UHGV virus genome: UHGV-0177145
Source of the DNA: a virus
Strand: one strand, 5' to 3'
DNA length: 15,982 bases
In this document: positions 6,497 to 13,160 of the stretch, one piece after another
Position numbering within the stretch: position 1 is the stretch's first letter
How the letters are laid out: each line of letters starts with the position of its first letter
Translations under genes and position numbers: made by a program
The notes under the pieces: generated by a model
Database searches by the model: none
What the model was told of the DNA's origin: nothing
The model's input: the letters and a program-made list of their open reading frames with translations, nothing else

Positions 6497-6694
6497 ATGC
6501 CTACAATCCTAGCAATTCTTCTAAAAAATCTAGGTAGCTTCTTCTGGAAACTCATTTTATCCCTTCTAAGTGAATACATGATTGAGAAAGTGTTCTTTAG
6601 GCTTGCAAGATACCTTGCGAGTAAAACAGACACACCTATTGATGATGAGTTCGTAGATAACTTAGAAAAAGCTTTTAAGGGGGAGAATAAATGA
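6497..6694 (+). CDS. Small membrane protein, holin-like topology (hypothetical, 65 aa)
   Basis: GAGGTGA ribosome-binding site. Hydrophobic N-terminal segment (PTILAILL...FFWKLILSLL) and a highly charged C-terminus. Stop overlaps the next start (ATGA). Confidence 0.45.
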   Translation: MPTILAILLKNLGSFFWKLILSLLSEYMIEKVFFRLARYLASKTDTPIDDEFVDNLEKAFKGENK

Positions 6695-7062
6695 AGTGGC
6701 TAGAGGAAGCTTTTAAAAATAATATTGGTGCAATTGTAGTTGGTATTTTTAGTGTTATTGGGATGTATACCACCATGCAAGTCTCGGATGGTAAGCAAGA
6801 AGTGTCTATCACAACAAAGTTACAGCAGTTAGATAATTATTCCAAAAGTAATTATTCAGCTATTCGTGATTTACAGTCTGATATGAGGCTGCTTCAGCTA
6901 GGGATGGAGAACCAGAAAGTCCAGTTAGAGAATGTTAAGGGTGAGAACGCAAAACTTACTAAGACTCTTGATAAATTCTCTGATAGTGTGAACAATCTGG
7001 CTCAATCAGTATCAGCCCTCCAAGCTATTACTGAAAAGAACACAAAGAATACTGAAAAGTAA
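6691..7062 (+). CDS. Membrane-anchored coiled-coil protein (hypothetical, 123 aa)
   Basis: AGGGGGAG ribosome-binding site. One predicted N-terminal TM helix (IGAIVVGIFSVIGMYTTM) followed by a heptad-like Q/L/N/K-rich region; topology resembles an i-spanin or antiholin, unproven. Confidence 0.5.
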   Translation: MKWLEEAFKNNIGAIVVGIFSVIGMYTTMQVSDGKQEVSITTKLQQLDNYSKSNYSAIRDLQSDMRLLQLGMENQKVQLENVKGENAKLTKTLDKFSDSVNNLAQSVSALQAITEKNTKNTEK

Positions 7063-9692: not shown

Positions 9693-9992
9693 TTAATCTG
9701 CCAGCCTTAAATTAAAATTAACACCAAATTTTTCGCATACTTCCAACATAAACTCAAGAGAGACATTACCAGTGAGATTGATTATGTTGGATACACGAGC
9801 CTGAGAGATGCCACAAATTTTAGCAACTTGCTCTTGAGAAAGACCTCTGGATTTAATCTCTCTCTTAAAACGATGTGCAACGAAGTCTCTCATTTCGTCT
9901 ACATCCATTGGACAAATATAACTCTCCATTTCAGCCTCTCTGTCAGCCTCCCAATCATCTTGTGGAGCATAAGGGTCAAAAACCTCATTCAT
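9693..9992 (-). CDS. XRE-family helix-turn-helix DNA-binding protein
   Basis: C-terminal LSQEQVAKICGISQARVSNII is a classic XRE HTH. Track ORF starts at a TTG (10022); the ATG at 9990-9992 has an upstream GGAAGAAGAAAG purine tract and overlaps the upstream stop (ATGAATGA). Confidence 0.7.
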   Translation of the reverse strand: MNEVFDPYAPQDDWEADREAEMESYICPMDVDEMRDFVAHRFKREIKSRGLSQEQVAKICGISQARVSNIINLTGNVSLEFMLEVCEKFGVNFNLRLAD

Positions 9993-10197
9993 CTTTCTTC
10001 TTCCGTTTGCGTGAAGTGTCAATCAATGAATCTATGTTTGTAGCTCTAACCTTTTCACGTTCATCGTTAAGATAATCATCAAGAGCCTTTTCAATCTGTG
10101 AATCATCTTGACAGATAACTGTAAAGACTGTAAAGCCGTCTGTGTCATCAATTATCTTACCATAACCGCTTCTGGGATGTAACTTTTTAAGAGCCAT
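9985..10197 (-). CDS. Hypothetical small protein with lysine-rich C-terminus (70 aa)
   Basis: ORF ending SRKRKKKDE, translationally coupled to the HTH gene. Confidence 0.45.
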   Translation of the reverse strand: MALKKLHPRSGYGKIIDDTDGFTVFTVICQDDSQIEKALDDYLNDEREKVRATNIDSLIDTSRKRKKKDE

Positions 10198-10198
10198 A

Positions 10199-10582
10199 TC
10201 AAATACCTGTGCAGCTTCTGTTTTCTAAGAAATACTCAACACCATACATAGCTTTTTGCATCAAATCTTCTTTAAACTGAATACGATGATTGAGCATAGC
10301 CTGTGCATCAATATCATCATGGTGCTTCTCTTTAATATTTGCAGATTGCAGGAAATACTCTGCAAGAACGCGATACTGATAGTCAGTTACCTTATCAGTC
10401 ATCTCTGTTAAAGACTCTTCAGAGATTGGTTTAAGTAACTCACCATTAGCCAAAGCAACACCTTTAACAATCTGACAAGTGTCTTCTGGAACACCTGATA
10501 AGTCCACATTTGGAAGTTCTGTTGCATTGACTGGTAAATTCATTGCCATAATCATTGCAGCGGCTAATAAAATCTTTTTCAT
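10199..10582 (-). CDS. Secreted or periplasmic protein with Sec-type signal peptide (127 aa)
   Basis: MKKILLAAAMIMAMNLPVNA/TELP: positively charged n-region, hydrophobic core, AxA-like cleavage site. GAGG ribosome-binding site 7 nt upstream. Confidence 0.6.
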   Translation of the reverse strand: MKKILLAAAMIMAMNLPVNATELPNVDLSGVPEDTCQIVKGVALANGELLKPISEESLTEMTDKVTDYQYRVLAEYFLQSANIKEKHHDDIDAQAMLNHRIQFKEDLMQKAMYGVEYFLENRSCTGI

Positions 10583-10626
10583 AATGACCTCAAAGTTATA
10601 TTAAATTTTGTATTACGTTGAGTATA

Positions 10627-10674
10627 AAAATAAGCTATAACACCTGACTTGTCAATAGATTTTATAGCTTATTT
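10627..10674 (-). promoter_or_regulatory. Perfect 13-bp inverted repeat bracketing a putative proximal promoter
   Basis: AAATAAGCTATAA (10628-10640) / TTATAGCTTATTT (10662-10674), 21-nt spacer. On the minus strand the spacer holds TTGACA (10650-10655), 17 nt upstream of TATTTT (10627-10632). Confidence 0.3.
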
Positions 10675-10828
10675 GGCAGATTTTTTATAAGGCTACTGCC
10701 ATCCTTCCATACCAAACCACACCCTGCCAAACCAGAGCCTACTAGACCATACCGAACCAAACATCACTTAAAAACCCTTTTAAAAGACTCTTAAGTGATG
10801 TTGGTGAGTACCTGTTGGTTTATGCTGC

Positions 10829-10858
10829 TCAGTATACTCACCAAATTTTCTATGTCAA
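10829..10858 (-). promoter_or_regulatory. Strong sigma70-like promoter just downstream of the ligase stop codon
   Basis: Minus strand: TTGACA (10853-10858), 16-nt spacer, TATACT (10831-10836). A 10-bp inverted repeat TTGGTGAGTA (10801-10810) / TACTCACCAA (10835-10844) overlaps the -10 and the predicted start site. Confidence 0.45.
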
Positions 10859-10864
10859 CAACTT

Positions 10865-11968
10865 TTATTCGTAGTCTCGAATAACTAACCCAACAGGGAA
10901 CTGTAAAGACCCCTTACGAGTCATCTTCTGGAACTGTACCGTTAAAGGTTTCCCGATAAACTCTTCAGGGTGTTCAGCAAGATACTGTTTCTTCTCATGA
11001 GTAGTCTTCCATGAGACATCTACAAATACGTTAGGAAGAGTCTCTACAACGAACTTACCATGACCCCGCTTATCAGTCTTTACACCAGTCACTTTAAACT
11101 CTTCAGTGTGCATCTTCTTGTGCTTAATCAAGAAGTATGAACGGTGACAACACTCATAGAAGGAGTCTTCAGAGATTGAACGGTACATTGCACCTTCAAA
11201 CTTAGCTTCAACCCACTTATCATGAGCTTCATCAAACTCTTCCCAAGAATTTACACGACGAGACTTAACAGGGACAACTTTACAGCCATCTCTAAAGTCA
11301 TTCAATGGTGAAGTCTCAATGATATCTCTACGCTCAGGCCACGTCTTAGTGCTGTCACAGATATCATACCAGTAAAACTTGAGTAGGTGTCTGTCAGGAT
11401 TGTCTTCATTTTTAATCATGGAGACGATATCTTCTAAGTCCCACCCATGAGCATAAATCTCTCCATCAAATTCATCAACATCTTTGTGGAGCCTTAACAT
11501 TGCCATAATGTCAGGTATTAGTTCAGTAGGGATTTTGTAAACAGTATTCTCACGAGAATATGCTGTAAATACACTGCCAATACTCAAGTGCCTTGAAATT
11601 CTACAACGAACACCATCAAGTTTCGGTTGAGCATCAGCAGGGAACTTCAGGTACTTTGCATGGCTAACCTTTGCAGCATCATGAGCAAGCTGTACACCAA
11701 CTTTCTCAGTATTCTGTGCAGACTCTTTTGTGTAAGCATAACCTTTACGGTCAACTTGCTTTTTATACTTTGCAGCAACTTCAAAGAGAGCTTGCTGTTC
11801 AGCGTTACGCTCATTCTTTTTACCGATGTTTTTAGGTTCTGCTGTATACTCTTCAAACATCATCTTGCCATTTTCTTTACCGTAGGTTGTAATAACTTTG
11901 TCACCTACAGCGACGCATGACCAGACGTTAAAAGAGCCATCTTTATTTTGTTTGTACAGTGTTGTCAT
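10865..11968 (-). CDS. lig: ATP-dependent DNA ligase
   Basis: KLDGVR adenylation motif (KxDG, motif I); size (367 aa) in the range of T7-type phage ligases. Confidence 0.88.
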   Translation of the reverse strand: MTTLYKQNKDGSFNVWSCVAVGDKVITTYGKENGKMMFEEYTAEPKNIGKKNERNAEQQALFEVAAKYKKQVDRKGYAYTKESAQNTEKVGVQLAHDAAKVSHAKYLKFPADAQPKLDGVRCRISRHLSIGSVFTAYSRENTVYKIPTELIPDIMAMLRLHKDVDEFDGEIYAHGWDLEDIVSMIKNEDNPDRHLLKFYWYDICDSTKTWPERRDIIETSPLNDFRDGCKVVPVKSRRVNSWEEFDEAHDKWVEAKFEGAMYRSISEDSFYECCHRSYFLIKHKKMHTEEFKVTGVKTDKRGHGKFVVETLPNVFVDVSWKTTHEKKQYLAEHPEEFIGKPLTVQFQKMTRKGSLQFPVGLVIRDYE

Positions 11969-12180: not shown

Positions 12181-12399
12181 TTAAAAGGATAAGTCAATAT
12201 CAATACGTTCACCCTTAAGGACTCCAGTACGGTCTTTTGCAATCTTCCCTTCAACAATAAGAATGTGTGCAGACCTTAAAGTGTCACTGTTAAAGGCTTT
12301 TACGAACTTGCTAGGCATCACTACAATACACATCTCCTGAATCAACTCTGGAGTATAGCAATTGTCGTGAAGTTGCTGAATAACGTCTGAAAGTGTCAT
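12181..12399 (-). CDS. Hypothetical protein (72 aa from ATG)
   Basis: Track ORF starts at TTG (12414); the ATG at 12397-12399 has a GGAGA ribosome-binding site and overlaps the upstream TGA (ATGA). Confidence 0.5.
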   Translation of the reverse strand: MTLSDVIQQLHDNCYTPELIQEMCIVVMPSKFVKAFNSDTLRSAHILIVEGKIAKDRTGVLKGERIDIDLSF

Positions 12400-12605
12400 T
12401 TTTGATGTCTCCAATACTCAATGTCAATAAGTTCTTGTGCAATGCTTTTCAGATTACCTTTCAAGAAAACCTTCTCAGAACCTGAAAGAGATGAATTGTC
12501 AATTAGCCTGTTCATTCTCTCAAACAACTTCTGCTTACGATTCTTGATAGTTTCCTTTGAAGCACCTTTCATCATCGCTGCATGGGTTCTTCCACGGTGG
12601 CTCAT
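12396..12605 (-). CDS. Hypothetical small basic protein (69 aa)
   Basis: AGGAGGG ribosome-binding site; rich in K/R; no recognised domain. Confidence 0.5.
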   Translation of the reverse strand: MSHRGRTHAAMMKGASKETIKNRKQKLFERMNRLIDNSSLSGSEKVFLKGNLKSIAQELIDIEYWRHQK

Positions 12606-12656
12606 AAGCCCTCCTATACAAGATATTGTATAAGGTACTCTTCCATGAGCACCTTG

Positions 12657-13160
12657 TCAACTTAGTTTTGCAAACTCTCCGTGGAGTTTTATAGCAGCTT
12701 CACAGTAAGCTTTATGGGCTTCTTCAGGTGTGTCAAATAAACCAAGTGATGTCCTTTTACCTCTGCATGTTATAGCTGCCCTCCACTTATTGCAGTCTTT
12801 AAAGTAATATACACCCTTGTAACCTGATTTGTTAGTTGTCTGCTTTACTCTATTTTGAGCATTTCCGTATTTATCAGTCTCCCTAAGATTAGAAATGTGA
12901 TTATTACTTCTGTTACCATCAATGTGGTCTATCATCTTAGTGGGTTTGTAACCATGTTCGAACCACCAAACGAGGTGATGAATTTTTATTACGACATCTT
13001 TGAATTTAAGTACTTTGTAACCGTAAGCATCAGCACCTCCTGCAATCTGCCCAGCTTTAGCTTGTCTATTCCTGTCATACTTGTTGTAGAAGACCCCTTT
13101 GTCGGGGTCGTAAATAAAATTATCCTTGTAATCTTGAAGTGTTAGTGTACGGCGTACCAT
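12657..13160 (-). CDS. HNH homing endonuclease with AP2-type DNA-binding domain
   Basis: HNH core HHLVWWFEHGY...IDHIDGNRSNNHISNL plus AP2-like SGYKGVYYFKDCNKWRAAITCRGKRTSLGLFDTPEEAHKAY. Start overlaps the last 19 nt of the polymerase gene. Confidence 0.8.
   Translation of the reverse strand: MVRRTLTLQDYKDNFIYDPDKGVFYNKYDRNRQAKAGQIAGGADAYGYKVLKFKDVVIKIHHLVWWFEHGYKPTKMIDHIDGNRSNNHISNLRETDKYGNAQNRVKQTTNKSGYKGVYYFKDCNKWRAAITCRGKRTSLGLFDTPEEAHKAYCEAAIKLHGEFAKLS

Follow-up and report, generated by a model that had tools for sequence, protein, structure and literature searches.

What is a protein that appears built for the periplasm doing among the replication genes of a phage? The question is raised by an open reading frame (ORF) of 127 amino acids (aa) in a stretch of 15,982 nucleotides (nt) from the virus genome UHGV-0177145 (hereafter the window), which is part of a Felix O1-like myovirus of the genus Felixounavirus. 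A first-pass annotation, made from the letters alone, had described this ORF at positions 10199-10582 as a Sec-exported protein and a functional candidate at the envelope. The ORF is confirmed, and its strand, which that annotation left unstated, is minus. It is the orthologue of Felix O1 ORF87 (Felix01p159, NP_944938; record label 'hypothetical protein'), and residues 1-127 match the PHROGs family phrog_4332 ('unknown function') over the full length with E 8.3e-67. Moogle gp45 and SUSP1 agp037 are further orthologues in the same family, all of them annotated as hypothetical only. We strongly infer that the protein is exported and cleaved and that it folds into three helices. For its role, superinfection exclusion is our tentative guess.

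The gene is real and conserved. It sits in the replication and nucleotide-metabolism block, and the 1.6 kb around it are 96-97% identical to many Salmonella and Escherichia Felixounavirus phages, with identities of 92-99% between ORF87-family proteins inside the genus. Within genera and lineages it is under purifying selection, with ratios of nonsynonymous to synonymous substitution rates (dN/dS) of 0.06-0.26. These ratios, together with homologues at 30% identity that keep the same length and both cysteines, a predicted local distance difference test score (pLDDT) of ~97 and a published transcript, rule out a spurious ORF. A foreign origin was also considered and set aside, the GC content of the gene being ordinary (0.36-0.37).

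Export signal, predicted fold and family

We judged the signal peptide by rule-based features, not with a trained predictor. Its n-region (MKK) has a charge of +2 and no acidic residues; the h-region (ILLAAAMIMAM) spans 11 residues with a mean Kyte-Doolittle hydropathy of ~2.9 and a best 8-residue mean of 2.99; and the c-region (NLPVNA) places Pro at -4, Val at -3 and Ala at -1, followed by Thr-Glu at +1/+2 with no Pro at +1. Read directly, the N-terminus has no lipobox Cys at +1 and no twin arginine, which excludes the lipoprotein and twin-arginine translocation (Tat) routes. Cys7 of the M719/ESh22-type proteins lies in ITLC, which is no lipobox and is too close to the N-terminus. The rule filter is a crude one. 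In the window, 44 six-frame ORFs reach 60 aa or more; 2 of them pass it, the second being an antisense junk ORF, as do 5 of 228 in the whole Felix O1 genome, namely the ORF87 gene, ORF3, the o-spanin lipoprotein and two junk ORFs.

Comparison across the family gives the stronger support. M1, K2, K3 and Ala20 (position -1) are invariant in 34/34 cluster representatives, position -3 is always V, A or T, and the hydrophobic core is kept in all 34 though the signal-peptide sequence varies by lineage. An invariant Ala at -1 and V/A/T at -3 are expected only if the site is cut. In the AlphaFold2 model, pLDDT is below 50 at residues 1-18 versus ~97 at 21-127. In a natural chimera, protein P0009 of Shigella phage vB_SflM_004 (vBSflM004_071), the signal peptide, MKKILLASAMVMAMNLPVKA, is of the Felix type and the mature domain matches the Moogle one exactly; its junction falls exactly at the predicted cleavage boundary, indicating recombination between signal and mature parts. 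The textbook signal peptide of the first-pass annotation, with cleavage after VNA, fits the rule features and every homologue.

The only other soluble Felix O1 protein with a signal-peptide-like N-terminus (MKKLILGLCLMFTAHLSYA/VD) is the 182-aa ORF3 (L006 3582-4130, outside the window). It lies directly after rIIA/rIIB, its record notes a likeness to the T4 'vs-regB intergenic' ORF, and it may be a second periplasmic accessory protein.

Structure prediction of the mature domain, called for at first pass, yields a confident antiparallel three-helix bundle (pLDDT ~97; helices in Table 1). Across lineages the mature part measures 104-108 aa, is acidic (pI 4.5-5.2) and contains exactly two cysteines, both invariant and spaced 88-89 residues apart (Cys36 and Cys124 here); from this pattern, their pairing in a periplasmic disulfide appears rather likely. 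Sequence-weighted conservation is highest in the loop 46-54 (G47-E48-L-x-K51-P52; 0.80), in the tail C124-x-G126 and at the start of helix 2 (D63, D67), and lowest in the first half of helix 3 (0.41) and in the turn between helices 2 and 3, which also has an indel. This pattern outlines a conserved pole of the bundle, with both termini and the cysteines, and a variable opposite pole. Because the exported protein displays no catalytic signature, it most likely acts by binding.

The earlier observation that the protein lacks a recognisable motif holds: Pfam, NCBIfam and PADLOC return no significant match, PHROGs returns the unknown-function family only, and profile searches of the PDB likewise yield no significant relative. 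An exhaustive phmmer search of 1.8 billion representative proteins gave 5 clusters, all of the ORF87 family. A mature-domain profile search of 5.8 billion proteins gave 34 clusters, again all of this family and 116-144 aa long, with a gap free of matches between E 1e-26 and 0.01. Family clusters with long contigs sit on phage contigs of ~85-90 kb, and tblastn places the family in 259 phage records, all Felix O1/Moogle/SUSP-like save a few oddly named. The ORF87 family does not occur outside the Ounavirinae, and no relative of it is detectable by sequence or by fold. The nearest shapes in Foldseek (E 0.6 or worse) are generic or designed three-helix binder scaffolds; the identity to such antiparallel bundles (designed binders, syntaxin Habc, domain I of ribosome-recycling factor) is 2-20%, a likeness of shape and not of descent or function. 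Neither the export signal nor the fold nor the cysteine pair of the family is described in the literature examined.

Felix O1-type genes also occur in GU169904.1 (Staphylococcus phage SA1) and in two 'Campylobacter' phage records, where identity reaches 100% and the genes found include those for the exported protein and the holin candidate. Their presence appears to reflect contaminated or mis-assembled public records, not a true host range.

Lineage divergence and the three-gene cassette

The minus-strand block reads, in order, DNA polymerase, HNH-AP2 endonuclease, small ORFs, ATP-dependent ligase, a 282-nt intergenic region, the 127-aa ORF, a 70-aa ORF, a Cro/CI-type helix-turn-helix (HTH) regulator, ORFs of 119, 171 and 86 aa, dihydrofolate reductase (DHFR) and thymidylate synthase (ThyA). 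For the regulator, the longest ORF extends to a TTG start at 10022, and relatives are annotated from the ATG at 9992. The order of exported protein, 63-70-aa gene, HTH regulator and 119-121-aa gene is kept in five lineages.

Within the block, the exported-protein gene diverges fastest between genera (~33% identity versus 54-93% in conserved neighbours). Identities of the mature domain between lineages are 20-36%, rising to as much as 62% among the closer Moogle, SUSP and ESh22 types, compared with 45-93% for the adjacent regulator in the same lineage comparisons. Against Moogle, the exported protein is 33% identical, the ligase 87%, the regulator 71%, ORF119 71%, ThyA 78% and the holin candidate 93%. 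The limits of the divergent segment can be read in the DNA: similarity to Moogle-type phages runs at 81-95% over the ligase and the intergenic region, ends at the start codon and restarts ~520 nt past it, inside the 70-aa gene. We considered general shuffling of alleles between genera and found it unsupported, the sole exchange being the chimera P0009. The identity matrix of the mature domain broadly tracks that of the regulator, so the gene looks fast-evolving rather than generally shuffled, P0009 apart.

A distant member of the Ounavirinae, the Hafnia phage vB_HpaM_Zyzzx, retains the ligase, the ORF119 homologue, DHFR, ThyA, the holin homologue, rIIAB and spanins. In this phage (L014 4807-6319) the ligase gene abuts the ORF119 homologue, and the exported protein, the 70-aa gene and the regulator are all missing. 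Searching 61 kb of non-structural Zyzzx DNA with a hidden Markov model (HMM) of the ORF87 family found no member (best E 0.097). The three genes are thus absent together and behave as one optional cassette.

Candidate roles in the infected cell

When is the gene expressed, and does the phage need it? In Felix O1, the ORF87 transcript was found by end-point reverse-transcription PCR (RT-PCR), with a signal maximal at 25 min together with ligase (88), polymerase (96), ORFs 80, 83 and 84 and the nrd genes, and not in the 5-min class; gp87 is not among the virion proteins (Whichard et al., PMC3185647). The gene had been called early-type at first pass. Its position in the replication block is borne out, and with ORF87 in the replication class the label is only approximately right. 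In SUSP1, the orthologue AVU07_agp037, which the authors map to phrog_4332/Felix01p159, scored a fitness of -0.76 (p 0.87, 'Not Fit') in CRISPRi-ART, a transcriptome-wide single-phage laboratory screen, and the two genes downstream scored alike (PMC11879866). This knock-down result, the only functional datum and one without a fitness effect, fits an accessory role and does not identify it. On superinfection exclusion, lysis inhibition or transcriptomics of Felix O1, the literature searched offers nothing specific apart from the SUSP1 screen and the RT-PCR table of 2010.

Taken together, export, a small stable binder-like fold, the lack of a catalytic signature, replication-phase expression, dispensability, and divergence between lineages combined with constraint within them suggest an accessory periplasmic binder. 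A candidate acting at the envelope, as first proposed, is reasonable, if unproven. In the mechanism that we favour, host RNA polymerase would transcribe the gene from the conserved sigma-70-type promoter along with the 70-aa protein and the Cro/CI-type regulator, which may turn the promoter off via the flanking palindromes. Host Sec would export the precursor and signal peptidase I would cut it after Ala20, giving a soluble, acidic three-helix bundle of ~12 kDa in the periplasm with its two cysteines probably joined by DsbA. The conserved pole would most likely bind another periplasmic component, and in the infected cell the protein would intercept the periplasm-crossing tail or ejection part of a second phage. 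We counted the divergence between lineages with constraint within them, as conflict-type evolution, in favour of exclusion; lineage-specific ORF87 alleles may define exclusion specificities.

The best-studied precedent for such a role is T4 Spackle (Sp, gp61.3), which resides in the periplasm, inhibits the gp5 tail lysozyme and so excludes superinfecting phage. Like Spackle, the ORF87 protein has an MKK-type Sec signal, a small mature domain and one N-proximal and one C-proximal Cys; its gene is non-essential and accessory and lies inside a replication block, as T4 sp does, flanked by primase gene 61 and helicase gene 41. Spackle, too, has a helical domain, which differs in size (~75 aa versus 107 aa here). 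Aligning the ORF87-family profile to T4 Sp with hhalign gives a probability of 7.6% over 23 columns that cover the signal peptides only. Sequence profile searches of the PDB returned no match to Spackle at E values up to 10, and the Spackle fold was not recovered. The likeness of the ORF87 protein to known periplasmic phage effectors is thus one of design and not of descent, and it shows homology to no exclusion protein.

Several observations weigh against exclusion. Pfam finds no muralytic domain in the Felix O1 tape measure, Dit-like, plug, hub, spike and Ig-tail proteins, and no gp5-like lysozyme domain in its tail proteins, unlike the setting of Spackle; only the endolysin gp35 matches PF00959 in the Felix O1 set, and the hub gp70 has no Pfam match, so that it could conceal a cryptic enzyme. 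The specific target of Spackle is thus missing. We found no report in the literature of superinfection exclusion by Felix O1-like phages. The conserved pole would fit whatever partner is itself conserved, be it the holin of the phage or a protein of the host, and cleavage, periplasmic location and the disulfide are predictions. Since Spackle is not homologous and its lysozyme target is not recognisable, we propose a Spackle-like exclusion role whose target may differ, as a guess by analogy with a probability of about 0.3.

The conserved pole would also suit a phage partner. An RI-like periplasmic antiholin, binding the periplasmic C-terminal domain of a class-III holin and delaying hole formation, is the main, if doubtful, alternative. 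As with T4 RI, the protein is small, exported, non-essential and encoded outside the lysis genes, in a phage with rII genes and a holin candidate of a type described as class III (PMC4392139); T4 rI, too, lies in the early region apart from the holin gene t. Only two soluble proteins of Felix O1 are predicted to be exported, the ORF87 protein being one of them, and the holin candidate, far more conserved than nearby early genes (93% identity in Moogle, 81% in L008), is the kind of very conserved partner that such a pole suits. Its periplasmic part is mildly basic (pI 8.2) against the acidic exported protein (pI 4.6), and the two families occur in nearly the same phage records (259 for ORF87 and 261 for the holin). 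Zyzzx, however, has the holin homologue, rIIAB and spanins and no ORF87-family member, which breaks the co-occurrence; the holin assignment is annotation only; similarity to RI is absent (hhalign probability 1.3%); and the searchable literature reports no lysis inhibition for Felix O1-like phages. The mechanism of RI also fits poorly, as RI depends on an uncleaved, unstable signal-anchor-release (SAR) domain, in contrast to the cleavable-looking signal and probably disulfide-stabilised domain here. Could the N-terminus nevertheless stay uncleaved, as a signal-anchor or SAR-type tether to the inner membrane with the helical domain in the periplasm? Sequence rules cannot tell cleaved signals from SAR domains; the N-terminus of T4 RI is signal-like, ends in IEA and is reported uncleaved all the same; and in several lineages the h-regions contain much Ala, Gly and Ser. 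We consider such a tether quite unlikely, as the core is only ~11 residues long before Asn/Pro, too short for a stable membrane span, and the residues at -1 and -3 obey the cleavage pattern in 34/34 representatives.

The partner may instead belong to the host. As a periplasmic inhibitor, the protein would bind a protease, a murein enzyme, an envelope-stress sensor or an envelope-sensing defence system, keeping the cell productive or blunting defence. Exported and non-enzymatic-looking, with a small binder fold whose nearest structures are generic or designed three-helix binders, it has the form expected; the conserved pole is compatible with a conserved host target, membership in an optional cassette agrees, and dispensability in a defence-poor laboratory strain is usual for anti-defence genes. 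This reading has no candidate target, PADLOC and inhibitor families give no match, and it leaves the allele identity of 20-36% unexplained, as periplasmic proteins are near-identical in Salmonella, E. coli, Shigella and Citrobacter; we hold it to be unlikely. Binding need not involve a protein at all: as a degenerate exported relative of all-alpha metal-binding proteins (MazG/PRA-PH-like or PhoU-like), it could hold a divalent cation or small ligand through E48, D63 and D67. Weak hints of such a relationship recur, in weak PRA-PH Pfam matches of 3/7 divergent members (best E 0.022), in an hhalign alignment to the MazG-like ORF109 of Felix O1 that pairs E48, K51, E60, D63, D67, Y70 and Y76, in the MazG-like gene that is the top noise match of the family HMM in Zyzzx (E 0.097), and in a recurrent weak match to the PhoU-like three-helix domain of PH0236 (E 0.25-0.5). 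All these scores are far from significance, with an hhalign probability of 9.3% and Pfam matches below the gathering threshold; the full acidic motif set of nucleoside triphosphate pyrophosphatases is absent, and nucleotide substrates are not expected in the periplasm. Metal or ligand binding is accordingly the reading to which we give very little credence.

Exclusion thus stays our favoured reading, and it would bear on how these phages are used. Felix O1-type phages are in wide use to type Salmonella, for biocontrol and in therapeutic cocktails, and for most of their genes no function is known. An accessory protein made in the replication phase and secreted could decide interference among co-applied phages of the same family, or lysis delay, both of which bear on cocktail design and yield. 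ORF87 is a conserved, lineage-restricted ORFan, one among many conserved ORFans of phages; its export signal is clear, and its predicted fold is confident but generic. Beyond this, we tentatively suggest that the family may form a new, structurally unrelated class of periplasmic effectors, a disulfide-stapled bundle delivered by Sec from a self-regulated cassette and controlling exclusion or lysis timing through a target and mechanism unlike those of Spackle, Imm, Sim and RI. It would then add a second, independent structural solution to the few characterised periplasmic phage effectors (Spackle, RI). The protein being small, soluble and non-essential, the prediction is cheap to test.

Upstream region and neighbouring features

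Table 1. Features of the exported-protein locus and of the holin candidate, in window coordinates
Feature	Position	Strand	Basis or counterpart
Exported-protein coding sequence (CDS), 127 aa, ATG at 10582	10199..10582	-	Felix O1 ORF87 orthologue; phrog_4332
Predicted signal peptide, Sec/signal peptidase I type, codons 1-20, MKKILLAAAMIMAMNLPVNA, predicted cut VNA/TE	10523..10582	-	rule features, comparison, pLDDT
Predicted mature domain, 107 aa, pI 4.6, helices 31-45, 55-90 and 93-121, Cys36 and Cys124	10202..10522	-	AlphaFold model and conservation
Shine-Dalgarno GAGG, 5 nt 5' of the ATG	10588..10591	-	direct sequence reading
AT-rich near-palindrome, core TACAAAATTTAATA, between -10 box and ribosome-binding site (RBS)	10589..10622	.	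counterpart in all lineages
Proximal sigma-70-like promoter, TTGACA-17-TATTTT, 10/12	10627..10655	-	kept in Felixounavirus, Mooglevirus, M719 and metagenomic L008
Inverted repeat of 18 nt, 89% complementary, arms 10628-10645/10657-10674 around the -35 box	10628..10674	.	candidate operator; also reverse blastn match
Distal sigma-70-like promoter, TTGACA-16-TATACT, 11/12, just past the ligase stop	10831..10858	-	promoter scan
70-aa gene, cassette gene 2, start 1 nt past the exported-protein stop	9985..10197	-	phrog_4473; synteny
Cro/CI-type HTH regulator, cassette gene 3	9693..9992	-	PF01381
Holin candidate, 123 aa, one N-terminal transmembrane domain, 94-aa coiled-coil C-terminal domain	6691-7062	+	'putative holin' in Moogle and others

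The first-pass annotation had placed the gene downstream of a strong promoter island. Two sigma-70-like sites do precede it on the correct strand and the proximal one is conserved, but such sites are no more numerous in the region than expected from shuffled sequence (5 versus 3.7 +/- 2.1). The ~100 nt around the proximal promoter hardly differ among Felixounavirus, Moogle and M719, and they can still be recognised in the most distant relative, which is metagenomic. In EP1 and ESh22, a distal-type promoter lies immediately upstream of the orthologue. Between Felixounavirus and Moogle-type phages, the near-identical upstream stretch (window 10583-10700 on the minus strand; L002 3800-3946; L005 1320-1467; L008 7900-8000) drives proteins that are only ~33% identical.

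The repeats and palindromes upstream of the gene are candidate operators and, judging by their sequence and position, may serve the HTH regulator encoded two genes downstream. EP1 (L003 1385-1432) and ESh22 (L004 1379-1425) carry perfect 8-nt inverted repeats at equivalent positions, 31-32 nt apart, whose sequences differ (TCCGGTAG/CTACCGGA versus TAGTGGGT/ACCCACTA in EP1 and ESh22). Such symmetric co-variation would fit a dimeric DNA-binding protein of altered specificity, or a hairpin in read-through RNA. Rfam identifies no known RNA element in the region upstream of the exported-protein gene. Further up, ~60-110 nt past the stop of the ligase gene (CDS 10865-11968), the intergenic region contains an imperfect 21-nt hairpin, AACATCACTTAA...TTAAGTGATGTT (window 10757-10802), which has no Rfam match; next on the minus strand comes a series of GGTTTGG/GGTATGG-like repeats (10700-10765).

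The palindrome before the exported-protein gene has a lookalike elsewhere in the window. Directly 5' of the GGAGG RBS of a 69-aa ORF (12396-12605, minus strand) lies the near-perfect palindrome TATACAAGATATTGTATA (window 12615-12632), and the motif matches 3 times versus 0.1 expected by chance.

Two further observations concern other genes of the window. A 65-aa membrane protein is encoded at 6497-6694 on the plus strand; its gene overlaps that of the holin candidate, and the pair comes after the tail-fibre gene. On the minus strand, a gene of the HNH-AP2 homing-endonuclease type (window 12657-13160) adjoins the 3' side of the DNA polymerase gene. In the window one ORF of 909 aa encodes the whole polymerase, versus two annotated CDS in phage RPN213 (L001 7589-9607), and in phage Mushroom it is likewise split into two CDS (PMC4392139).

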